Below, in pieces: positions 14,676-55,940 of a DNA stretch of 64,000 bases. This stretch comes from Clostridiales bacterium. Its GTDB lineage: Bacteria > Bacillota > Dehalobacteriia > UBA4068. Numbering within the stretch: the first letter of the stretch is position 1; the number at the start of each line of letters is the position of its first letter. The DNA lies in NCBI GenBank assembly GCA_040767605.1, contig JAXGOI010000001.1:1720610-1784609 (forward strand), written 5' to 3'. The notes under the pieces were generated by a model, which saw nothing but the letters and a program-made list of their open reading frames with translations, did no database searches and had not been told where the DNA came from. Both the position numbers and the translations under genes were made by a program.

Positions 14676-16049
14676 ATGGAATATAATTCAGGGTTAAAAG
14701 GCAAAATTCCTCAAACAGGGGATGAAATATGCCTGGAAATTAGCGGCCTTAATCATCAGGGTATGGGTATTGGCCGCTTTCACGGCCCGGCAATTTTTAT
14801 TAAGGGAGCCTTGCCCCGGGAGATTGTAAAAGCAAAAATTATTAAAACCCATAAAAAATATGCCATTGGGAAGCTTTTGGAGATAATTAAAGAGAGCCCT
14901 GATAGAATCAGCCCGCCCTGTCCGTATTTTGGCGCCTGCGGAGGCTGCAGCCTGCAGCATATTTTATATAAGGAACAATTAAAATTTAAAAAGCAAAGGC
15001 TAAAAGACAGCCTCGAAAGAATTGGAGGTATAAAAAACCCCAATATTGAGGATGTTATGGCATCCCCCAAAGAGTTTTATTATCGCAATCGGGGGCGCTT
15101 TCATATCTTTTGGGAAGAAAATGGGCTTAAGCTGGGGTATTTTGAGTATAATGCCCAAAATATAATAAATATAAAAAAATGCCTTATTGTTGATGAAGAG
15201 ATTAATAAAATTCTTTTCTATCTTCAAAAACATTTGCCAGAATATAGAAAGGGCCTTGGGGGTTTATATCAGATTGCAATCCAAAGTAATAGCCGGGGCG
15301 AGATTGGCCTGATTTTTATGACAAAAGAAGATAACCCGGCTTACCGGGAATTAGCCCTGGCTTTATTAAAAAACTTCCCTAAAATTATTTATATTGCGGC
15401 AAATATCAGAAAAGCTAAAGCCCCTGCAAGAAGCATTACCTCCGGAGGGGAATGGAGGCATTTGGCAGGAGATAAAGCCCTTAATGAAAGCTATAACGGC
15501 CTGAGCTTTGCCCTTAGCCCAGGCTCCTTCAGCCAGGTGAACAGGGGGCAAACCTTAAATTTATATGCCAAAATTAAAGAATATGCCGCTTTAGGGGGAG
15601 AGGAAACGGTTTTGGATATATACTGCGGAGTCGGCGCCATTGCCTTATATCTCGCACCGTTTTGCAGGCGAGTAATGGGGGTTGAGGAATCAAAAACGGC
15701 AATAATAAACGCAAAAAGCAATGCTTTGGCAAACGGAATAGAAAACGCGGAGTTTTTTGCCGCCCCCGCTGAAGAAATTTTGCCCCTATGGGCTGAACAG
15801 GGCCTTAAACCCCAGGTAATTGTGGTTGACCCCCCCAGGCAGGGCTGTAATGAGGCTGTAATTTCTGCAATTGCAGCCATGGAGCCGGGGAAAATTATTT
15901 ATGTATCCTGCGACCCGGCAACCCTGGCAAGAGATTTGCGTATTTTAAACACAGCGGGCTATAAAATTAAAAAAACCCTGCCTTTTGATATGTTTCCCCA
16001 GACGGGGCATGTGGAGACGGTAGTATTGATGTCAAGGGCGGATAAGTAA
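14676..16049 (+). CDS. rlmD: 23S rRNA (uracil-C5)-methyltransferase RlmD/RumA
   Basis: N-terminal TRAM domain, the 4-Cys cluster CPYFGACGGCSLQH, SAM motif VLDIYCGVGAIAL, and VVDPPRQG. Confidence 0.9.
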   Translation: MEYNSGLKGKIPQTGDEICLEISGLNHQGMGIGRFHGPAIFIKGALPREIVKAKIIKTHKKYAIGKLLEIIKESPDRISPPCPYFGACGGCSLQHILYKEQLKFKKQRLKDSLERIGGIKNPNIEDVMASPKEFYYRNRGRFHIFWEENGLKLGYFEYNAQNIINIKKCLIVDEEINKILFYLQKHLPEYRKGLGGLYQIAIQSNSRGEIGLIFMTKEDNPAYRELALALLKNFPKIIYIAANIRKAKAPARSITSGGEWRHLAGDKALNESYNGLSFALSPGSFSQVNRGQTLNLYAKIKEYAALGGEETVLDIYCGVGAIALYLAPFCRRVMGVEESKTAIINAKSNALANGIENAEFFAAPAEEILPLWAEQGLKPQVIVVDPPRQGCNEAVISAIAAMEPGKIIYVSCDPATLARDLRILNTAGYKIKKTLPFDMFPQTGHVETVVLMSRADK

Positions 16050-16859: not shown

Positions 16860-18974
16860 ATGAATAGTATAAAGTACAAAGATCTCATAACTGAATTATT
16901 ATTACAAGATGAGCGACTATGGAATGAAGGGAAAACTGAGTTTAATCAAGTACTTCTTTTTGATTTACTAGATAAAGTTGATGAAAAAATTATTGATTTA
17001 CTTTTACAAAACGAAGAAATTAGAAATAAGTTTTTCATTAAAATCAAAGATGTATATGTTTTTAAATCTAATGATTTCAAATTTTTTATGGAAGAAAATA
17101 AAATTAACAACTCATATACGGCATTTGAAAATATCATAGGCTTATCTGATGGTGATAGATTCATAAAGAATAGAGATGAAGTTGTTATTAATTTTCCTTT
17201 TAAAGATTGTGTTTTGGAAGGTGGACAATCAACAGAGGAAGGCGAAGATCAATACTATGAGTATACAGAAGAAAAAACTAAAACAGTAAATGGAGAAAAG
17301 GTGGTTGAGCCTGCAGGATTTAAAAGAAAAAATTCGAAAAGATCTGAGATATTTTTTAATGAAGTATTAGCTAATGATGAGCTTGACAGACTTAGAGATG
17401 AGAAAGCATTCGTAAACTGGAAAAGATACACAAGAAATTCCGAGGAAACAATAGGTCAAATTAAGAGAAATTCGGAAGGACTTATTAATGAAAATATTAT
17501 TATAAAGGGTAATAACTTATTAGCATTATATAGCTTAGAGAGTCAGTTTTCGAATTCAATAAAAATGGTATATATTGATCCACCTTATTATTTTTCAAGT
17601 ACGTCTAAGAGTAATGACTCATTTGTTTATAACACAAATTTTAAGCTTTCTACTTGGCTAGTGTTTATGAAGAACCGATTGGAGATTGCTTATAGATTAC
17701 TGCGAAATGATGGAGTTATTTTCGTAAGTATAGATGACGGGGGGCAAGCGTATCTTAAGGTATTAATGGATGAGATATTTGGAAAAGAAAACTTTATTTC
17801 AACACTACCAACAATTATGAATTTAAAAGGGAATAATGATGAATTTGGATTTTCTGGAACTCATGAATATACTCTTGTGTATGCTAAAAATAAGAGTAGT
17901 GCGTTAATTAATGAATTTCCTCTCGATGAAGAAGAACTTTTGAAGGAGTGGGAGGAAGATGAAATAGGTTATTACAAACGAGGGGCAACTCTCAAAAGAA
18001 CAGGAACCGATGCGCCAAGGGAAAAGCGACCATATGCATACTACCCAATACTAGTTAAAAATGGTGAAATAAATTCTATTGAAAAAGAAGAATTCGAGAG
18101 AATATTTAACAAAAACACAAAAACTTTTGATGACGATTTTGTGAGTGAGTTAAAAATAAAATATGAAAGCTTAGGATTTGAGTTCATACTCCCAACAATC
18201 TCAGATAATAAAACATCTTGGAGATGGCAATATTCTAAGGTGAAAAATGAGAGTAATGAAATTATTATTTCATTTTCTGGGGAGACTTCGTTTTATAAAA
18301 AACAGAGACCTCAATTAGGTGAAATTCCAACTAAAAAGCCTAAATCTATTTTTTATAAACCAGAATATAGTAGTGGCAATGGTACTAGACAAATTAAGGA
18401 TTATTTTGGCGAAAAAGTGTTTAACAATCCTAAACCTTTAGAACTCATCAGAGATTTTATTTTGCTAGCTACTAATGAGAATGACATCATATTAGATTTT
18501 CATGCTGGATCAGGAACAACCGGAGATGCTACAGTAAGACTTGGTGAAAACAGGAAGTTTATCCTGATTGAACAAATGGATTACGTAAAAGATGTTACGG
18601 TAGAGAGAGTTAGAAAAGCACTAGAATCAGAAAACAGTGACGATTCATTCATATATTTCGAACTTGCAGAGTTTAATGAAAAAGCTAAAAGAGAAATACT
18701 GCAATGCAAAAACCTACAAGAATTAGAGAAACTATTTGAGGAACTATATGAACACTATTTTTTAAACTACAACGTTAAAGTAGAAGAGTTTAAAAATAAT
18801 GTAATGAAAGATAAGAGATTCATTGAGTTATCTCTTGAAGAACAGCAAAATATGTTTCTTGCAATGTTAGATTTAAATCAGATGTATGTAAATAAGTCAG
18901 AGATGGAAGATAAAAGATATGGTATAAATGATGAAGAACAAGAATTGATAAAACGTTTTTATGAGGGGGTGTAA
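16860..18974 (+). CDS. mod: Type III restriction-modification system methyltransferase (Mod)
   Basis: 704 aa. Catalytic VYIDPPYYF (DPPY) before the C-terminal FxGxG motif LDFHAGSGTTG, the beta-class order typical of Type III Mod. Very AT-rich gene. Confidence 0.85.
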   Translation: MNSIKYKDLITELLLQDERLWNEGKTEFNQVLLFDLLDKVDEKIIDLLLQNEEIRNKFFIKIKDVYVFKSNDFKFFMEENKINNSYTAFENIIGLSDGDRFIKNRDEVVINFPFKDCVLEGGQSTEEGEDQYYEYTEEKTKTVNGEKVVEPAGFKRKNSKRSEIFFNEVLANDELDRLRDEKAFVNWKRYTRNSEETIGQIKRNSEGLINENIIIKGNNLLALYSLESQFSNSIKMVYIDPPYYFSSTSKSNDSFVYNTNFKLSTWLVFMKNRLEIAYRLLRNDGVIFVSIDDGGQAYLKVLMDEIFGKENFISTLPTIMNLKGNNDEFGFSGTHEYTLVYAKNKSSALINEFPLDEEELLKEWEEDEIGYYKRGATLKRTGTDAPREKRPYAYYPILVKNGEINSIEKEEFERIFNKNTKTFDDDFVSELKIKYESLGFEFILPTISDNKTSWRWQYSKVKNESNEIIISFSGETSFYKKQRPQLGEIPTKKPKSIFYKPEYSSGNGTRQIKDYFGEKVFNNPKPLELIRDFILLATNENDIILDFHAGSGTTGDATVRLGENRKFILIEQMDYVKDVTVERVRKALESENSDDSFIYFELAEFNEKAKREILQCKNLQELEKLFEELYEHYFLNYNVKVEEFKNNVMKDKRFIELSLEEQQNMFLAMLDLNQMYVNKSEMEDKRYGINDEEQELIKRFYEGV

Positions 18975-18977
18975 TGA

Positions 18978-21722
18978 GTGTCCGAGAAAAAGAATTTATA
19001 CGAAATTATTGGTTCAAAAGCGTGGGAACTTAAACTACAATTCCCTGAAATCCCTAAATATGTAACAGACAACTTGAAATATTCATTTTATGAATGGCAA
19101 AAGAAAGCTTTTGAGAATTTCTTAACCTATCAAGAAATCAAGAAAATTGAATCTCCAAATGATCCAACTCATCTAATGTTTAATATGGCTACTGGAACCG
19201 GAAAAACATTGCTTATGGCTGCAACAATTTTGTATTATTATAAGCAGGGCTACAATCATTTTCTATTTTTTGTGAATCAAAATAATATTGTTGATAAGAC
19301 AGAAAACAACTTTATTAATGTGAACCATAATAAATACTTATTTAATAAAAGAATTGTAATTGACGACAGCGATGTAATAATAAAAAAAGTAGAAACATTT
19401 AGTGAGGGAACAAAAGATATTGAAATTAAGTTCACTACAGTACAAAAACTATATAATGATATTCACACAGAAAAAGAAAACCAGGTATTATTGGATGATT
19501 TGATAAAAATGGATATAGTGATGCTTGCCGATGAAGCACATCACCTTAACACAAATACGCAAAAGCAAGAGACACAATTAGAACTTGATTTAGCGACAGA
19601 GTTAACTAGCAGAACTAGTGACGTTGAAGTAGAGCGCAAAGGGTGGGAGCACACGGTTATAGAGTTAATTTTAAGAAAGAAAAGTAAGAAAATTCAAAAT
19701 AAGAATGTATTGTTGGAATTCACTGCAACAATACCTGATAATCTTCAGGTGTCAGAAAAGTATAGCAATAAAATAATTCATAAATTTGGCTTGAAGGAGT
19801 TTTTAAGTGCTGGATATACAAAAGAAATTAATTTGATATCTTCTACCTTCAATAAGAAAGAGAGAATACTTCAAGCTCTATTATTTAGCTGGTATCGTGA
19901 AAAAATCGCTTTAAAATACTATAGCTTAGGTAATGATAGCCTTGCTAATTTTAAACCGGTTATTCTATTTAGGAGTAAATCAATAGATGATTCTAGATCG
20001 GATTTCGAAGAGTTTCAAGATATAATAAATAAACTAAATCCCAATGATTTTGAGTTTTTGAAGGATATTGATAGCAAGGTCAATGAAAATGGTACTGTTT
20101 ACGAACAAGGGAAATCTAGAACAAGGGATGTTATCGAGTTTATTAAGAAGGAAAATATTTCATTTTCGCAAATCGTTGAGAATTTGAAATATAAGTTTGC
20201 GCAGAAAAATTGTATAATCACTAACTCGAAAGATAATACCACAAAAACAGAAAAAACTGATGATCATCAAGATAGATTACTTAATAGTTTAGAAGATAAG
20301 AATAATCACATTAGAGCTATTTTCACAGTAGAGAGACTTACAGAAGGTTGGGATGTATTAAATCTGTTTGATATAGTAAGACTCTATCAAGGGCAGAATA
20401 CAGGAGGTAGTACTAAAAAAACTCCAGAAGTAACAACTAAAGAAAAACAGCTTATCGGAAGAGGGGTTAGGTATTATCCTTTTAATTATGGTAATAAGCA
20501 AAATAACTGTCGGAAATTTGATGAGGACATGAAAAATGAATTAAGAGTATTGGAAGAATTGTACTACTATACTTACGACGAAGAATCCAGATATATTTCC
20601 CACCTTAAAGAAGAGTTGAGAAAAGATGGATATATCAAGGACAATAAAATAATCAAAACCTTTAAGATAAAAAAAGAGTTCCAAGATAAAGATTTCTATA
20701 AAGACGTAAAAATATGGCACAACAACCAAATTGATAATCCTGATAGAAAGAAAAAAACGCTCACCGATATATCAAAGGACTTCTATAAAGGATACAGAAT
20801 TAGAAGTATAAGTTTTAATGAAGAGCAGTTTGGGTTTGAAGATAAAGAGGACATTAACAGACTAAAAGTAACTGATAATAATTATCAAACATTAAATACT
20901 AAATTCAAAGAATTCGAAAAACATATAATCCAAAAAGCAATAAATATTAAAGCGAAGCCAAGTTCTTCACTATTTCATTTTTATAGAATGAAAAAAGAGT
21001 TGGAGATTGATAGTATTGATGATCTAATGAGCGATAATTTTCTAGGGGATTTCGATATTCCTATCATTGTAAATGGTGAAGTTAAGTTTCGAGATCTCTC
21101 AAATAAAGATAAACTTGATGTTTTACTAAGTTTCCTGGATGCTTTTTTGATTGAATTTAAGAAAGTGATTGACCCTAAAAAAGGAACAGAATTTATTGCA
21201 TCTAGTTTCAGCGAATTATTTGGTGAGCCTAAAGTTAAGAGTATTGAAAAAGATGAAGACTCTATACGTATAGAGAAGAATTTAAAAAATGAAGATTGGT
21301 ATGTTTTAGATTCTTTTCATGGCACTGACCAAGAGAAAGAATTACTTGAAGAAATTAAGAGTACTATAGCTAATCTACAGTCTAAATATGATGAAGTGTA
21401 TCTTTTAAGAAATGAAGAAGTGTATAAAATATATGACTTCGATAAAGGCAGAGGGTTCCAGCCTGATTTCTTATTGTTTTTGAAATCAAAAGATACTATT
21501 AATAAATATTATCAAATATTTATTGAGCCTAAAGGCGAATATTTGTTAGAACGTGATGGTTGGAAAAATGACTTCTTAAAAGAGATAACCTCGAAATATG
21601 GGAATGAAGGTAAAGATATACTAACTTTGGATAGTAAAAGTTATAAACTAATAGGTTTGCCATTGTTCAACACAAATGAAAATGAATTTAAAGAAGAATA
21701 TAAAAAGATTTGGAACGGTTAA
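18978..21722 (+). CDS. res: Type III restriction enzyme Res subunit (SF2 helicase plus PD-(D/E)xK endonuclease)
   Basis: 914 aa. Walker A MATGTGKTL and the DEAHH box. C-terminal GFQPDF...IFIEPKGEYL nuclease motif. Directly downstream of mod. Confidence 0.85.
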   Translation: MSEKKNLYEIIGSKAWELKLQFPEIPKYVTDNLKYSFYEWQKKAFENFLTYQEIKKIESPNDPTHLMFNMATGTGKTLLMAATILYYYKQGYNHFLFFVNQNNIVDKTENNFINVNHNKYLFNKRIVIDDSDVIIKKVETFSEGTKDIEIKFTTVQKLYNDIHTEKENQVLLDDLIKMDIVMLADEAHHLNTNTQKQETQLELDLATELTSRTSDVEVERKGWEHTVIELILRKKSKKIQNKNVLLEFTATIPDNLQVSEKYSNKIIHKFGLKEFLSAGYTKEINLISSTFNKKERILQALLFSWYREKIALKYYSLGNDSLANFKPVILFRSKSIDDSRSDFEEFQDIINKLNPNDFEFLKDIDSKVNENGTVYEQGKSRTRDVIEFIKKENISFSQIVENLKYKFAQKNCIITNSKDNTTKTEKTDDHQDRLLNSLEDKNNHIRAIFTVERLTEGWDVLNLFDIVRLYQGQNTGGSTKKTPEVTTKEKQLIGRGVRYYPFNYGNKQNNCRKFDEDMKNELRVLEELYYYTYDEESRYISHLKEELRKDGYIKDNKIIKTFKIKKEFQDKDFYKDVKIWHNNQIDNPDRKKKTLTDISKDFYKGYRIRSISFNEEQFGFEDKEDINRLKVTDNNYQTLNTKFKEFEKHIIQKAINIKAKPSSSLFHFYRMKKELEIDSIDDLMSDNFLGDFDIPIIVNGEVKFRDLSNKDKLDVLLSFLDAFLIEFKKVIDPKKGTEFIASSFSELFGEPKVKSIEKDEDSIRIEKNLKNEDWYVLDSFHGTDQEKELLEEIKSTIANLQSKYDEVYLLRNEEVYKIYDFDKGRGFQPDFLLFLKSKDTINKYYQIFIEPKGEYLLERDGWKNDFLKEITSKYGNEGKDILTLDSKSYKLIGLPLFNTNENEFKEEYKKIWNG

Positions 21723-21899
21723 AATTGAATTGATCATTGATGGAAAAAATGAGCTGTGAAATTGATAAAGCGTAGATAATAATCTTTTTTGTACATGAGA
21801 TGGTTGAATATAAATTATGAATGGGATTTTAATCATCTCATGACATTTAATTTACTCAGTTAAAAGTTATGCTGGGGACCGAAAGAGGCGAGGTAGAGT

Positions 21900-22394
21900 A
21901 TGTACACTATTAAAGGAAAGCAAGCTTCAAGGATTGAACCGGTCACTTTTTCAGAGTTAAATATGACTGAAAATGATATAAAAGAGATTCTAAGAAACAG
22001 CATTGATATGATCTGTGATGAAGAAGAATCCATGCTTATTGTTGGCAGGTAGGTCAGAAATAAATGGATAAGTCACTCATTACAACAGCATCTGGAGAAA
22101 AGAAAATTAAACGGAGGTCTCTACCGAAAATAGATTTAATGCTTGAAGGGTGTTGTTAAAGAAGGAGACATTATAGTTGCTAAAGGGATAGGAGATGAAG
22201 GAATGCTTCTTTCTAATGGCAGTGCAATGGTCAACGGAGAAGAAAAGTCTATGCAAGCATGGCTAAAAGAGATTTATGGATGGTTTAGCGTTCAGACTTA
22301 TGTTTTTGCTGTACATAAAGAAACAGGTAAAACTTTGTCTCAGATTCGTGAAGAATATATGGAAAAGAAAGTTACTGAAAGCACTGAATTATAA
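21900..22394 (+). pseudogene. Disrupted ~165-codon ORF of unknown function (three in-frame stop codons)
   Basis: One continuous reading frame opens with RBS GAGGCGAGG and ATG at 21900 (MYTIKGKQASRIEPVTFSELNMTENDIKEIL...). It is interrupted by TAG at 22050, TAG at 22134 and TAA at 22140, then continues in the same frame as the TTG-start 83-aa ORF 22143-22394. Confidence 0.4.
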
Positions 22395-22467
22395 AAAATA
22401 AGCAGTTGAGCTAATAGACTGAGTTTAATTATTTGTGGTCATTTCAAGAAATGGGGGGAGATTTCTT

Positions 22468-24354
22468 ATGTCAGGTAATCGTTCATTTACTGAATATGTA
22501 AAAAACTCATTTGATAATCAATTTTGGTCTGTTGCAGAAGAATATCTGTGTGAGAATGTCGATCCCTTGAATATCAAGCTTTTTAAAGTACATAAAGCTG
22601 GAGAGCCAGAAATTACAGATGTGCAAGTGGAACATGTTTGGGTTGAAGATTTACCAGAAAAGAAAATACAATTTGATGTGGCCTTATCCGTAATATTTGA
22701 AATCCCAGAAGCTGATTATCATTATGATGATTCAGAAGAAAAGAGAATATGGCTAATGGTTCGTTGTCGAGGAGATCTTAGTTGTAATCTCCAGGATTTC
22801 GAGATTTTTGAAGTTTCCGATTACACTGGGAAAAACCGTGTTAAAAATCCATTGGACGATTCGCTTGTTCCCTATATTCCATATGAAAAGCTAGATGAAG
22901 TGGCTACATCGTTTCTTAAAGAATATTACCCTGAAGCTCTTAAAATTACTCAATATAAGCAGGACCCTGTTTGGGTTGACCCCAATATCCTTACAGAAAG
23001 ACTTGGATTAACAATAAATACTCAACGCATAAGGGAAGATGCATCAGTATTCGGTCAGATATACTTTGTTGATACTGATGTAGAAATGTATGATTCCAAC
23101 ACTCAAAGTAATGTAGCTATGCAGATTGAAGGGAAAACTATTGTTGTCGATCCCTATATGTACTTACTTAGGAATCTAGGTTCTGTTAATAATACAATAA
23201 TACATGAGTGTGTACATTGGGTTAAGCATAGAAAAGTATTTGAACTGGAAAAACTATATAATGCAGCAGCCTCTCATATAAGCTGTGAAGTAAAAGGTGG
23301 GGCAATCTCAACGCTATCTAAGAAATCTACAGAATGGATGGAAAAGCAAGCTAACCAATTGACACCACGGATACAAATGCCAGCAGAACCTTTTAGAGTA
23401 AAGGCAAATCAATATATAGCACAATTTATGCGTGAATCGAATGCTAGGCACACGGTAGATGTGATGGAAAAAGTTATTACTGCATTGGAGACTAAATTTG
23501 CGGTATCTAAGCAAGCAGCAAAGATTCGACTTGTAGAGTTAGGCTTTGAGGAAGCTATTGGCACATTCACATATCTTGATGGTCGTTATGTAAAACCACA
23601 CGGTTTTCGTAAAGGGACAATCAAGGTAAATCAGACATTTTCTTTAAGTGCTCAGGACGCAGCTATTGAACGCTTTCTCAATCCTGAACTTCGTGCTCTA
23701 ACTGAAAATGGAGATTATCTCTTTGTAGATAACCATTATGTATACAATGCACCACTTTATGTAGAGCGTGATGAAAACGGAAAGTTAGAATTAACTGGAT
23801 ATGCCCGTTCTCATATGGACGAGTGTTGTCTTGTATTTGATATGAGAATCACTAGCAAGGTAGAGAACATATATCACACAGCATGCTTTTTAAATCGTGA
23901 ACTGAGTGACATCACATTTGAAATTAAGTATCATAATGGGTTTGAAAATGCACCGCAAGAACGTCAAGTCGCTATGCGAAAAAAAATTCAAGCTGAAGAA
24001 TTAGAGATTCGAAAACAGATGACTGACGATCCGGAACAGTGCCTGGAACTTCTTCTTAAATGGAGAGGTATGAATTATACTGACCTTGGTCTTGAAATTG
24101 ACCGTGATCCAAAGACTATTAGTCGTACGGTTAAGGGTAAAACTGCCCCTACAGTGGAGACCGCAGCACTTATATGCTTTGGTCTTCATCTCTCGCCTAC
24201 GATCAGTATGAAGTTGATGGACGTGTTTGGCTGCAAGCTGAACCCTATGAAATATCCTAATCATCAATGGATAAATGAGGCTTTATACATAAAATATCCA
24301 GAGCCAATATGGGCTATCCGGGAGTATTTAAGCCCATACGGAGTAGAAATTTAA
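22468..24354 (+). CDS. Large uncharacterised protein with an ImmA/IrrE-type (M78) HExxH metallopeptidase signature and a C-terminal HTH
   Basis: 628 aa from ATG 22468 after the RBS GGGGGGAG. Internal motif RNLGSVNNTIIHECVHWVKH resembles the ImmA/IrrE r.nFTiaHElgH signature. The C-terminal region LLKWRGMNYTDLGLEIDRDPKTISRTVKGKTAPTVETAALICFGLHL is HTH-like. The ~190-aa N-terminal domain and the middle domain are not recognised. Confidence 0.55.
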   Translation: MSGNRSFTEYVKNSFDNQFWSVAEEYLCENVDPLNIKLFKVHKAGEPEITDVQVEHVWVEDLPEKKIQFDVALSVIFEIPEADYHYDDSEEKRIWLMVRCRGDLSCNLQDFEIFEVSDYTGKNRVKNPLDDSLVPYIPYEKLDEVATSFLKEYYPEALKITQYKQDPVWVDPNILTERLGLTINTQRIREDASVFGQIYFVDTDVEMYDSNTQSNVAMQIEGKTIVVDPYMYLLRNLGSVNNTIIHECVHWVKHRKVFELEKLYNAAASHISCEVKGGAISTLSKKSTEWMEKQANQLTPRIQMPAEPFRVKANQYIAQFMRESNARHTVDVMEKVITALETKFAVSKQAAKIRLVELGFEEAIGTFTYLDGRYVKPHGFRKGTIKVNQTFSLSAQDAAIERFLNPELRALTENGDYLFVDNHYVYNAPLYVERDENGKLELTGYARSHMDECCLVFDMRITSKVENIYHTACFLNRELSDITFEIKYHNGFENAPQERQVAMRKKIQAEELEIRKQMTDDPEQCLELLLKWRGMNYTDLGLEIDRDPKTISRTVKGKTAPTVETAALICFGLHLSPTISMKLMDVFGCKLNPMKYPNHQWINEALYIKYPEPIWAIREYLSPYGVEI

Positions 24355-24371
24355 TTTTTTTCTTAAAAAAA

Positions 24372-24388
24372 TGGACAAGGTATGTCCA
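24372..24388. promoter_or_regulatory. Operator-like palindrome TGGACA-N5-TGTCCA
   Basis: Perfect 6-bp inverted arms. A second, related copy lies at 24611-24625. Confidence 0.35.
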
Positions 24389-24533
24389 CTATAAAGTTGA
24401 AAAAGTGACCTTCGACACAAAGATTTGGTCTCTTTTTTATTGGTAAGCATGATAAGCAATTGTCACCAACATTATATTAGTCAGTAAACTATGACTAATT
24501 AAAGAAACAACCGCAAATCAATTCATAAATAAT

Positions 24534-24592
24534 CGCCGGAGTTATCAAAGTAAGCCATTAAAGGCTGAAATAGATAACTCCGGCTTTTTTTA
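24534..24592 (+). terminator. Rho-independent terminator (long-loop)
   Basis: GCCGGAGTTATC...GATAACTCCGGC 12-bp inverted repeat followed by T7. Confidence 0.6.
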
Positions 24593-24610
24593 TTTTCATG
24601 GGTTTTGACA

Positions 24611-24625
24611 GGACATGGCATGTCC
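24611..24625. promoter_or_regulatory. Operator-like palindrome GGACAT-ggc-ATGTCC
   Basis: Perfect inverted repeat. Same GGACA-N5-TGTCC architecture as the site at 24372. Confidence 0.35.
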
Positions 24626-24814
24626 ATTTTCAAAAAAAAATCCGTGTTACATTTAGTTTATAGATAAGCAATATTGCTTTCTAAATAAATCTCAAAGTCC
24701 TAGTGCGCATACGGACGGCGGGATGCATAAGAGTTCAGAACACAGTGATAAAGACTGTGTTTGGAATGAAGATGCACCCACCGTTATTTCGTGTGCCCTT
24801 TTTTAGGACAAGCG

Positions 24815-24849
24815 GAGTCTGTGGTCATCTTCACCGCAGGCTCTTTTTG
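24815..24849 (+). terminator. Terminator/attenuator-like hairpin just upstream of the first phage regulatory gene
   Basis: GAGUCUGUGG-ucaucuuca-CCGCAGGCUC: a 10-bp stem with two G-U pairs, followed by U5. Confidence 0.5.
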
Positions 24850-24888
24850 TATTCCGCCGCCCAATGACTAGGCGGAAAGGAATACTTT

Positions 24889-25437
24889 ATGAAGATTCGA
24901 GTTTTATATGAAGACAACATCAAAAATGGTCACAAGAACTACACCACAATTGAAATTCCAGATGGAGATTACAGTGTTATGCTGGACATTGACTATGAGC
25001 AACGTCTTGCAGAGGCAAAGCCTGAAAAGAAAGCAGAAGTTAAGCGTTGTGAGACTTTGCAGGAAATGTTCGACCTTATGAATGCCAAAGAATACAACCA
25101 CTGGCGCCGCTATCATAGGCATCTTGGCAATCCGAAGACTCCATATCGTAAAGATGATCAGGCTGAAGATGAAACAGATGTTATGGATACATTTGCAGAT
25201 AACTCTCAAGAAATAGAGCGCTCTAACCAATACGAGTACGAGGATGTTTGTAAATGGATACGCAAGGTACTCGGTAAAAAAGAAGATTGGGCGGATATGT
25301 TTATCGCAGTTCGTATGGAAGGTATGTCGATTCGAGAATATGCCAGTTCCATAGGTGTTAATGAAAACAATATTACTCAGAAATTAAAGCGAGCAACCAA
25401 GAAATTAGAACAAGAATATAAAAACCATCAGATTTGA
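24889..25437 (+). CDS. Phage protein with C-terminal sigma-70 region-4-like HTH
   Basis: 182 aa. C-terminus MSIREYASSIGVNENNITQKLKRATKKL is HTH-like. RBS AAAGGAA. Confidence 0.5.
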   Translation: MKIRVLYEDNIKNGHKNYTTIEIPDGDYSVMLDIDYEQRLAEAKPEKKAEVKRCETLQEMFDLMNAKEYNHWRRYHRHLGNPKTPYRKDDQAEDETDVMDTFADNSQEIERSNQYEYEDVCKWIRKVLGKKEDWADMFIAVRMEGMSIREYASSIGVNENNITQKLKRATKKLEQEYKNHQI

Positions 25438-31020: not shown

Positions 31021-31241
31021 CCGACCCTTATGAGCAACTTGCAAATGCTATTATCCTGCAAGCTGTTAAGGATTACAGAGATGCATTAAAGAAACTGAAA
31101 AAACGTCCCCGCTATGATCCTGCGAAGGACACAATAGCCGAGGTGGAGAGGTTCTTCCACTCAGATTGGTATAGAGAACTTACCTCTGTTGATGGGAATT
31201 TCCTAATAAAAAATTTAAGATCGGAGGTAAGAGAAGGATGA
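31017..31241 (+). CDS. Hypothetical phage protein
   Basis: 74-aa ORF translationally coupled to the helicase. Confidence 0.4.
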   Translation: MTDPYEQLANAIILQAVKDYRDALKKLKKRPRYDPAKDTIAEVERFFHSDWYRELTSVDGNFLIKNLRSEVREG

Positions 31242-31663
31242 AAGTAAAGGAATATTTACACCAAGCATATAGGCTTGATAAAAGAATACAGTCAGACATC
31301 GAGGAAATGGAGTGCCTTAGAGAAATGGCAACTAATGTATCCTCGCCAAGCTGGGATGAAAAGGTGCAAACCTCACGAAATACAGACGCCAAGTTTGTAA
31401 GATGTTTAGAGCGAATTATAGATTTGGAAAGTAAGATAAACGCGGAAGTGGATAACCTTGTAGCACTCAAAGAGCAGATAAGGAGTGTAATCAACGAGGT
31501 TGTAGACACGGATGAACGCATGGTTTTACGGTATCGGTATGTGCATAACTTCACTTGGGAACAAATCGGTGATGAACTCAATGCCGACAGAACGACAGTT
31601 TATAGGTGGCACAATGTAGCTCTTAACCATGTGACCCTTCCTGAAAATCCTATTAAAATATAG
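31238..31663 (+). CDS. ArpU-family/sigma-region-4-like phage late transcriptional regulator
   Basis: C-terminal ERMVLRYRYVHNFTWEQIGDELNADRTTVYRWHNVAL HTH. Sits immediately before the packaging genes. Confidence 0.6.
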   Translation: MKVKEYLHQAYRLDKRIQSDIEEMECLREMATNVSSPSWDEKVQTSRNTDAKFVRCLERIIDLESKINAEVDNLVALKEQIRSVINEVVDTDERMVLRYRYVHNFTWEQIGDELNADRTTVYRWHNVALNHVTLPENPIKI

Positions 31664-55262: not shown

Positions 55263-55564
55263 TTAGGGTTTATTTCCTAGTCCCAACCAATGAAATCAAT
55301 GAGTTTTTAACGACGTTCTTCAAGCTCTATCCTACAGCGACAGCCAGTGAACTTTCCTACTATGTGAATGACGGGATATTAAAACCAATCGGAAAAGAGT
55401 ACATCTTTCAAGAACTGGTAAATCCTATTCACAATCGTAAGGATAATCAAGTCACGGTATCGCTGACAGTGGAGTATATCGACCAGCAGACCAAAGCAAC
55501 GCAGGTATCTCAATTTGATTTGGTACTTGAAAAGAACGGGAGTAATTGGAAGATTATAGAATAA
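55229..55564 (+). pseudogene. Probable 3' remnant of Tn916 orf13
   Basis: The ORF begins inside the lysin terminator and lacks a credible start. Its position matches the gene upstream of orf12 in Tn916. Not verified by alignment. Confidence 0.3.
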
Positions 55565-55838
55565 CAAATATTGGTACATTATTACAGCTATTTTGTAATC
55601 ACGTACTCTCTTTGATAAAAAATTGGAGATTCCTTTACAAATATGCTCTTACGTGCTATTATTTAAGTATCTATTTAAAAGGAGTTAATAAATATGCGGC
55701 AAGGTATTCTTAAATAAACTGTCAATTTGATAGTGGGAACAAATAATTGGATGTCCTTTTTTAGGAGGGCTTAGTTTTTTGTACCCAGTTTAAGAATACC
55801 TTTATCATGTGATTCTAAAGTATCCGGAGAATATCTGT

Positions 55839-55925
55839 ATGCTTTGTATGCCTATGGTTATGCATAAAAATCCCAGTGATAAGAGTATTTATCACTGGGA
55901 TTTTTATGCCCTTTTGGGCTTTTGA
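55839..55925 (+). CDS. tet(M) leader peptide (Tn916 orf12, 28 aa)
   Basis: MLCMPMVMHKNPSDKSIYHWDFYALLGF, directly upstream of tet(M). It contains the attenuator hairpin CCCAGTGATAA-gagta-TTATCACTGGG plus T5 at 55872-55905. Confidence 0.8.
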   Translation: MLCMPMVMHKNPSDKSIYHWDFYALLGF

Positions 55926-55940
55926 ATGGAGGAAAATCAC

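Follow-up and report, generated by a model that had tools for sequence, protein, structure and literature searches.

A phage-encoded fusion of an M78 metallopeptidase with an XRE-type DNA-binding domain as a candidate lysis–lysogeny switch of Heliusvirales-type prophages

Introduction

In the ImmA/ImmR, IrrE/DdrO and CapP/CapH systems, an M78 peptidase is combined with an XRE repressor that is cleaved on DNA damage, and fused forms as well as the analogy to LexA were discussed in 2009 and 2022 (PMC2701414; 10.1101/2022.04.27.489752). Here, we analyzed a stretch of 64,000 nucleotides (nt) from a Clostridiales bacterium (GenBank assembly GCA_040767605.1, contig JAXGOI010000001.1, positions 1,720,610 to 1,784,609 of the forward strand; referred to as the window), in which a gene at 22468–24354 on the plus strand encodes a 628-amino acid protein that joins an M78 (ImmA/IrrE/CapP-type) metallopeptidase to an XRE-type helix-turn-helix (HTH) domain. 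The gene belongs to a prophage of the Candidatus (Ca.) Heliusvirales type. Its product is the best candidate for the lysis–lysogeny switch of Heliusvirales-type phages, and we assign a probability of roughly 0.55 to the reading that it is the conserved master regulator of the prophage, a single-chain ImmA+ImmR-like switch.

Ca. Heliusvirales were reported to belong to the temperate phage lineages with the widest distribution in the human gut (PMC11283538), and phage phi1207.3 was described to have an odd bias toward lysogeny with only 2-fold induction by mitomycin (PMC9927172). A literature search found no paper on how Heliusvirales-type phages choose between lysogeny and induction. The streptococcal relatives phi1207.3, phi-m46.1 and phi-SsUD.1 spread mef(A)/msr(D), tet(O) and tet(W), and the prophage in the window carries tet(M). 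What the analysis contributes to the lysogeny question is one conserved protein, a pair of conserved 15-bp sites, a promoter of fixed geometry and a leader RNA.

The locus differs from each of the closest described systems. ImmA/ImmR of ICEBs1 and the ImmAR-type prophages (phi105, pneumococcal and clostridial prophages, Listeria MpaR) use two proteins, and ImmA/ImmR is defined by two separate adjacent genes; here, both domains lie in one open reading frame (ORF), with the peptidase N-terminal to the HTH and two extra domains in the chain. The regulator gene of ImmA/ImmR-type modules is divergent from the lytic genes, whereas here it is co-directional with them, the proposed operators lie downstream of the gene, and cleavage is putative. 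CapP/CapH acts at a defence promoter and has a GAF-like C-terminal domain; in contrast, no such domain was recognized in the 628-amino acid protein, the sites are found at a phage early promoter, and the gene is a core phage gene that is also kept with non-defence cargo. In the rare CapH–CapP fusions that have been described, the CapH-like HTH comes first and is followed by the protease, which is the usual order. IrrE(PprI)/DdrO of Deinococcus is a chromosomal two-protein stress regulon with a different operator (RDRM) and without phage context.

Fusions of Xre and COG2856 (for example M. tuberculosis Rv2515c) are a known class, reportedly noted by Makarova et al. in 2009; in these proteins and in Mtb PrpR, an N-terminal HTH is usually followed by the peptidase in a protein of about 350–400 amino acids. 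The family studied here shows the reverse order, has approximately 620–650 amino acids with extra N-terminal and middle domains, and forms its own family, phrog_4031; it is further set apart from the fused class by its conserved place in a widespread phage order and by a defined cis-regulatory architecture. With lambda CI and LexA it shares, by analogy, DNA binding and signal-dependent proteolysis in one chain, the latter being predicted here. CI and LexA are S24 serine autoproteases, whereas the 628-amino acid protein is predicted to have metallopeptidase chemistry, and no S24 peptidase (Ser-Lys) domain was found in a family scan of it. The C proteins of restriction-modification (R-M) systems (C.AhdI, C.BclI, C.Esp1396I) comprise ~70–100 amino acids, and each of their genes is preceded by its C-boxes; here, a 628-amino acid enzyme carries the HTH in its C-terminal part, and the sites are found past the gene, at a phage promoter.

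Results and discussion

The 628-amino acid protein is a member of a large phage protein family

The gene is an uninterrupted ORF of 628 codons with its ATG at 22468 and the stop codon at 24352–24354, as stated in a preliminary description made from the sequence alone. A strong ribosome-binding site (GGGGGGAG) is located ahead of the ATG, and the frame is open already from a GTG at 22435. The product matched the phrog_4031 hidden Markov model (HMM) over its full length (E = 3.1e-233; amino acids 3–628 on profile positions 3–625 of 626), so that it can no longer be called an orphan, as the preliminary description had done. More than 1,600 homologues were retrieved in each of two word-indexed searches; among 1,747 representatives of 50%-identity clusters, 524 had E values ≤1e-30, and these are mostly 600–650 amino acids long. 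Relatives were present in 430 GTDB species-representative genomes, and the identical sequence is present in NCBI.

Database names of cluster mates are ‘ImmA/IrrE family metallo-endopeptidase’ (Lacrimispora defluvii, WP_170821614.1), ‘XRE family transcriptional regulator’ and ‘HigA’; the last, used by JGI as ‘HigA antitoxin’ for some cluster mates, reflects the HTH only. An NCBIfam search with the protein gave just one spurious match (PsiE), a single-sequence search of the PDB gave no significant match, and a literature search revealed no characterization of the phrog_4031-type family or of the phi1207.3, phi-m46.1 or phi-SsUD.1 homologue. The whole length of the protein thus matches a known family, but one that is large, uncharacterized and without assigned function.

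Domain architecture and conserved residues

The domains were described using an AlphaFold2 (AF2) model of the protein (predicted local distance difference test, pLDDT, 90.3; predicted template modelling score, pTM, 0.84), and conservation was determined from an alignment of 128 family members with 25–85% identity. Six residues are invariant in this alignment (G196, H246, E247, H250, E292 and R354), 14 are conserved in ≥90% of the members (C248, H254, Q294, A295, P305, G359, G365, Y431, T443, Y445, A446, E452, C453 and F457), and N296 is conserved in 85%.

The M78 metallopeptidase domain spans amino acids ~139–365 (22882–23562, plus strand). It contains the zinc-binding and catalytic HExxH motif H246-E247-C-V-H250 (23203–23217) and the third zinc-ligand motif of M78 peptidases, E292-x-Q-A-N...M-P305 (23341–23382), where we take E292 to be the third zinc ligand from what is known of IrrE and ImmA. 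The resulting HExxH...E-x-QAN...MP pattern is the M78 signature, and the catalytic domain also has the M78 fold. CapP was the best structural match, and the PADLOC capP HMM matched the protein with an E value of 6.7e-7. A role as defence effector, which the preliminary description had listed beside a signal-sensing regulator and a lysogeny switch, or as toxin was rejected because the regulator CapP was the sole PADLOC match; the reading as lysogeny switch or signal-sensing regulator is the best supported one.

The XRE/Cro-C1-type HTH (Pfam HTH_3), a five-helix domain recognized by profile and fold, is located at amino acids 520–586 (24025–24225) with the recognition helix PKTISRTVKG. Its presence had been correctly noticed before, whereas its position had been given as 540–600. 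The HTH structurally resembles C.AhdI and C.BclI, and the family profile matched HipB (1.7e-6) and C.BclI (4.7e-6) at the sequence level. Both sequence strings quoted in the preliminary description, TERLGLTINT (amino acids 176–185) and NLGSVNNTIIHECVHWVKH (amino acids 236–254), are present, and its view of the protein as a single large fusion of an ImmA-type peptidase and an HTH with extra domains, of which the HExxH and HTH segments are conserved in homologues, was borne out.

The N-terminal domain (amino acids 1–135, 22468–22872) is weakly conserved and consists of helices followed by a four-stranded curved sheet with a cystatin/NTF2/VirB8-like fold. Between peptidase and HTH, a conserved middle domain with a small alpha/beta fold (amino acids 366–497, 23563–23958) contains the near-invariant residues H423, Y431, T443, Y445, A446, H449, E452, C453, C454 and F457. 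This His/Cys-rich domain is a candidate sensor or metal site, and together with the N-terminal domain it probably receives or gates the signal. A linker helix (amino acids 498–517, 23959–24018, conservation 0.23–0.27) connects the body to the HTH and may represent the cleavage region. The linker around amino acids 476–520 is the least conserved part of the protein and has the lowest model confidence among folded regions; pLDDT values of 66–84 across amino acids 461–510 are the lowest outside loops. The C-terminal helices (amino acids 597–628, 24256–24351; modelled at 597–608 and 614–624), in which L621 is 92% conserved, could serve as a dimerization element.

Two conserved palindromes downstream of the gene and a putative early promoter

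Exactly two copies of GGACA-N5-TGTCC are present in the 64 kb, at 24373–24387 and 24611–24625, with 0.05 expected; none of 100 shuffles gave two or more. These are the palindromes that had been noted before as possible operators. Palindrome 1 (GGACAaggtaTGTCC) is located 18 nt past the stop codon and is proposed as an operator or roadblock. It is followed on the plus strand by a terminator-like hairpin T1 (24398–24439, −12.5 kcal/mol, with A-run and U-run), which has equivalents in relatives, and by a strong intrinsic terminator T2 at 24535–24591 (GCCGGAGTTATC...GATAACTCCGGC, then U7; −28.7 kcal/mol, z = −7.1), which relatives keep at ~20 nt upstream of palindrome 2 and whose segment GATAACTCCGGCTTTTTT is kept in most loci. 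Palindrome 2 (GGACAtggcaTGTCC), the proposed operator at the early promoter, covers about −49 to −35 and is centred near −42 of the putative promoter with the extended −10 element TGtTACATT (24645–24653, plus strand). No −35 hexamer is present at the proper distance of 17 nt from this element.

The sites were surveyed in 80 genomic loci encoding homologues with 46–95% identity, from Clostridia to Bacilli. In nearly all of these loci that have downstream sequence, GGACA-N5-TGTCC was found 7–30 nt past the stop codon, and it was also found there in more distant clades. Most loci with ≥50% identity have a second copy 130–1,700 nt further on; it always follows a conserved strong terminator (GATAACTCCGGC with U-run) and is followed by an A-tract and an extended −10. 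A strict TGnTAnnnT occurred in 23 of 45 distinct second-palindrome contexts, and in all 23 the hexamer starts 22 nt after the palindrome, with no other offset. The 46%-identity group shows a degenerate form of the second site (GGGCATGAGGTGTCC), located 23 nt upstream of TACAAT. An Oscillospiraceae phage with 40% identity (locus L003) has a different gene order, and both palindromes lie in a divergent intergenic region, each 22–23 nt upstream of a −10 (distances counted by hand); one promoter faces the replication genes, the other an operon with R-M cargo and the regulator. Different loci share no related DNA upstream of the regulator gene, with a mosaic boundary right at the ribosome-binding site; since the palindrome is conserved after the stop codon nonetheless, this conservation is specific to the downstream side. 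With sequence and position kept across very divergent relatives and one copy at a fixed spacing to the −10, the two palindromes behave like operators, as judged from sequence comparison.

Three other assignments were tried and rejected. TTGACA at 24605–24610 does not qualify as −35 of the early promoter because it is 37 nt away from the conserved −10 and the hexamer 17 nt on is neither −10-like nor conserved. The promoter-proximal half-site as −35 for the phage sigma-like factor was dismissed, the spacing of 22 nt being too long. Sites of host global regulators (Cheo/LexA box GAAC-N4-GTTC, TnrA, Rex and others) differ in sequence, and the palindrome is tied to the stop codon.

One could regard the palindromes as terminator hairpins or recombination scars at mosaic joints, with a protein of unrelated function, for example toxin/antitoxin-like or a defence effector. 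The sites do bracket a variable region, palindrome 1 forms the stem before a U-run in some clades, and the ‘HigA antitoxin’ names of some cluster mates would be in line with a toxin/antitoxin function. However, the sequence of a terminator stem is not preserved across hosts and 25–95% protein identity. Palindrome 1 of the window folds only weakly as RNA (−6.8 kcal/mol), lacks a U-run and is followed by separate terminators, and palindrome 2 comes after the terminator at its fixed 22 nt from the −10. Family scans of the flanking ORFs found no HigB/RelE-type toxin family, and no PADLOC effector was matched. We therefore consider this explanation very improbable.

The fused HTH as candidate binder of the palindromes

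The two palindromes bracket a slot (24388–24610 in the window; 11695–12840 in L001, 10162–11211 in L005, 6815–7603 in L007, and others). Exactly one plus-strand gene occupies it in 36 of 47 relatives with two sites, and these genes belong to at least six unrelated families: 18 encode CI-like HTH proteins of the phrog_3 ‘transcriptional repressor’ type, the others DUF6076 or HTH_17 proteins or proteins with no assigned family. The slot is empty in 11 loci, with 134–298 nt between the sites, including the window with 238 nt.

These slot genes bear on an alternative in which the 628-amino acid protein is an anti-repressor protease like ImmA or MpaR that cleaves a separate repressor, either a CI-like slot protein or one encoded beyond the window, and uses its own HTH for tethering or autoregulation. 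The frequent phrog_3-type slot genes and the continuation of the prophage past the window are compatible with this, and a protease gene followed by a repressor gene is a common order in lysogeny modules of Firmicutes (PMC11318856). On the other hand, the slot of the window itself is empty, and the palindrome is constant whether the slot is empty or filled with a gene of any of the at least six families; a slot protein is therefore unlikely to be the binder. No further XRE repressor is present in the window except that encoded at 58203–58556, the only minus-strand HTH_3 gene, which lies inside a Tn916 tet(M) fragment and is hence cargo. The earlier statement that a divergent CI-like repressor is missing consequently holds for phage-derived genes of the window; it has to be amended for this Tn916 gene and for a prophage that exceeds the window. 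Other phage regulator genes near the switch were not seen in the 64-kb window, nor was a small XRE gene next to the 628-codon gene. Taken together, an anti-repressor appears distinctly unlikely.

The fused HTH itself is a plausible binder of the palindrome, as suggested by sequence comparison. The recognition-helix core [KRQ]-[TQ]-[IV]-x-R is kept through most of the family, and changes in the helix go along with changes of the site after the stop codon. Proteins with the helix NERT[VI]RRY are followed by GGACA-N5-TGTC[CT], those with SEKQISRLF or DERTIRRLF by GGACA-N6-TGTCC. The GGACA site is absent after the stop codon with SDRYIQDLR, where a different palindrome is found instead, and likewise absent with TQTQIERIF, HPDVVSRII and DERTLRKYE (phi-SsUD.1). 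For the covariation test, more distant clades were drawn from viral contigs; a distant-clade search of these contigs with P0353 and P0345 found nothing. The covariation fits a fused HTH that reads the palindrome, and does not prove it.

Proposed mechanism of the switch

The domain make-up, the invariant catalytic residues, the size of the family, the place of the gene and the conserved sequence and geometry of the DNA sites are observed; the reading as master switch is the most economical explanation. The regulator gene would be transcribed in the lysogen from upstream, often together with R-M or other cargo, and a dimer of its product would bind the two GGACA-N5-TGTCC sites via the HTH. Site 1 after the stop codon, together with the terminators T1 and T2, could insulate the co-directional lytic genes from read-through. 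From site 2 near −42, the protein would set the activity of the early promoter, most likely by repression. This promoter is predicted to start an operon that begins with a structured leader RNA and includes genes for a sigma-like factor, Rha, primase/helicase and others. The inducing signal might be DNA damage or single-stranded DNA (ssDNA), as it is for ImmA, IrrE and CapP. The peptidase would then cut its own protein, either in cis or in trans, at a position within the variable linker or close to the C-terminal helices; the cut would free the HTH from the dimerizing body, so that the protein is inactivated or converted and the switch flips. If true, a protease/repressor pair has been collapsed into one chain in reverse order and with added sensor domains.

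Several observations weigh against this assignment. The Pfam M78 family (PF06114, COG2856) scored the protein with 18.4 bits, below the gathering cut-off of 22 (E = 0.0019); precomputed PF06114 hits exist on many homologues that are 65–70% identical to it. About three quarters of the two-site relatives carry a slot gene, often for a phrog_3 CI-like HTH protein, which could be the true repressor there. Palindrome 1 is a terminator stem with U-run in several clades, and its conservation could partly reflect that role. All phage genes co-diverge, so that the covariation of helix and site is also compatible with another conserved phage protein as binder, for example the sigma-like one. For phi-SsUD.1-type homologues, a recognizable operator pair was not found. 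Finally, activators classically occupy a site at −42 where a −35 is lacking, as lambda CI does at PRM.

The last point is central to a reading in which the protein activates the early (lytic) promoter. It would be latent in the lysogen, its HTH being held or masked by the body, until self-processing frees the HTH, which then recruits RNA polymerase from −42. The location of the palindrome at about −49 to −35, the extended −10 without −35 hexamer and the invariant spacing argue for this; the operator position of lambda CI at OR2/PRM, −42, equals that of palindrome 2, and −42-type sites are class II activator positions for CRP and FNR as well. Docking of the HTH on the body is suggested by the high pTM of 0.84, and both divergent L003 promoters share the geometry. 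In contrast, all characterized M78/XRE systems (ImmR, DdrO, CapH) are repressors that are inactivated by cleavage, and in Firmicutes, a TGn extended −10 often allows a promoter to be active in the absence of an activator. The L003 geometry serves both the cargo/regulator operon and the replication genes; in a lysogen, the former should be expressed and the latter silent, which is awkward for a pure activator. A repressor is easier to reconcile with L003 because there the same geometry drives lysogen-active and lytic operons. On balance, we regard activation as unlikely and repression as the most probable mode of action at the early promoter.

More tentatively, the elements may be combined into a fully unidirectional switch of a kind not described before, without a divergent CI/Cro pair, a model that we regard as unlikely. 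A sensor–protease–HTH protein expressed with the defence cargo would act on two identical operators bracketing a swappable slot, serving from −42 as a proteolytically controlled activator or as a dual roadblock/activator, with the leader RNA as a second gate before the sigma-like factor; the His/Cys-rich middle domain would sense a cue other than RecA-ssDNA, such as redox state or a metal.

Upstream cargo and relation to restriction-modification genes

The type III R-M cargo upstream of the regulator gene (16860–21722, plus strand; identified with Pfam and PADLOC) consists of mod (16860–18974; MTase_III, 1.7e-185) and res (18978–21722; REase_III, 7e-103), both co-directional with it. Its adjacency and its AT-rich nature, both pointed out earlier, were confirmed: the G+C content of the stretch is 0.29–0.32 compared with 0.40–0.45 elsewhere in the window. 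When the three ORFs upstream of the regulator gene were scanned in 37 non-redundant relatives, R-M and defence genes dominated, with 19 C5 methylases, 17 AAA_5, 7 LlaJI and 7 McrBC proteins; further families were N6_Mtase, ResIII, Eco57I, BpuSI, Vsr, BrxL and nSTAND3. The R-M adjacency is not due to chance. Defence cassettes within 3–9 kb upstream of the homologues in loci L001–L084 comprise C5 methylases with LlaJI/McrBC-type systems, systems of types I, II and III, and BpuSI, BrxL and nSTAND3.

In 48 of 65 contexts, the ORF next to the regulator gene on its upstream side has the same direction, and the median gap is ~38 nt; cargo and regulator gene therefore probably share a transcript. If this neighbour is on the opposite strand, an ordinary promoter-like sequence without palindrome precedes the regulator gene.

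This arrangement could be taken to indicate a CapH/CapP-like or controller-like regulator of the adjacent defence cargo, here the type III R-M system, that responds to DNA damage or infection rather than controlling the phage. The predominance of co-directional R-M genes at short distance, the structural similarity to CapP and of the HTH to C.AhdI and C.BclI, and the L003 sites at the head of an operon with R-M genes and regulator would all be consistent with it. In the window, however, no palindrome is present at the head of the R-M cargo, both sites being downstream of the regulator gene, and site 2 is found at the phage early promoter in dozens of relatives. The regulator gene persists in relatives that carry cadCA and tet(W) as cargo, and unrelated DNA just upstream of it is what one would expect if a core gene is flanked by a cargo hot spot. 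Dedicated control of the defence cargo is accordingly an improbable function, and we read the upstream region as a cargo hot spot transcribed in the lysogen beside a core gene. If the master-switch reading is true, R-M cassettes accumulate right upstream of the regulator because this region is transcribed in the lysogen.

The 745 bp between res and the regulator gene (21723–22467) contain ORFs of only 50 and 83 codons. They gave no family match and no match to phage DNA, and showed no similarity to the 182-amino acid ORF preceding the gene in a 95%-identical Lacrimispora locus; these comparisons did not bear out the decayed gene that the preliminary description had placed here.

Leader RNA of the early operon

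Between the putative early promoter and the gene for the sigma-like protein lies a leader of ~230 nt, which contains a conserved structured RNA (24697–24875, plus strand). RNAalifold predicted 36 pairs, 18 of them with compensatory changes. Covariation was assessed across 15 diverged phages: 89% of the leader cells were paired versus 41–52% in slid-partner controls, and the covariation score was 0.41 versus ≤0.18 in slid controls; none of 500 shuffles reached either value. The G-U pairs fit the plus strand. A closing helix pairs GGGATGCA (24720–24727) with TGTATTCC (24848–24855), internal hairpins are located at 24697–24716 and 24740–24761, and a terminator-like hairpin (24814–24844) is followed by a U-run. 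An Rfam search of 21600–25000, which includes the leader, gave no credible family. The phage sigma-like factor may be gated by this leader in the manner of an attenuator or a riboswitch. The factor, a sigma-70 region-4-containing protein of family phrog_11138, is encoded by the first gene of the early operon (24889–25437, plus strand, ATG at 24889); this family also follows the regulator in the 46%-identity group.

Prophage context

The prophage starts just past a rumA-like 23S rRNA (uracil-5) methyltransferase gene (14676–16049; TRAM and U5-methyltransferase domains), a neighbour of the same kind as that beside which the streptococcal phi-m46.1/phi-SsUD.1 ‘_rum’ prophages are integrated, and extends past the right end of the window. 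The first gene on the phage side (16632–16829) encodes a 65-amino acid HTH_17 (excisionase/AlpA-like) protein. Following the regulator, genes for the sigma-like protein, Rha, DUF7768, VapE primase/helicase, SNF2 helicase, structural and lysis proteins, the tet(M) insert and DUF2800/SSB/PolA are arranged in one direction.

Among annotated phages, those of Ruminococcus and Oscillospiraceae that are assigned to Ca. Heliusvirales come closest (66–68% and 40% protein identity, respectively), and the ‘rum’ prophages of S. suis, S. pyogenes and S. gallolyticus (phi-SsUD.1, phi-m46.1) show ~28% identity over ~95% of the length. In every annotated relative, the regulator gene has a fixed place between variable cargo and the sigma-like, early and replication genes, and Heliusvirales phages of Anaeroplasmataceae also encode a homologue in this position. 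The gene therefore belongs to the phage core and borders on a cargo hot spot.

Between its lysin gene and the DUF2800/SSB/PolA module, the prophage harbours a Tn916-type segment (55285–58606) that is 95% identical to enterococcal and other plasmids. The segment contains a TcpC-like fragment, the tet(M) leader, tet(M) (55926–57860), a gene for a KTR protein and the minus-strand HTH regulator gene at 58203–58556. As this segment lies within the prophage, the phage carries tetracycline resistance.

Downstream of the replication genes, a second sigma-region-4/DUF1492 protein of 141 amino acids is encoded at 31238–31663. It is probably a late-gene activator, and the phage would thus possess two sigma-like regulators in series.

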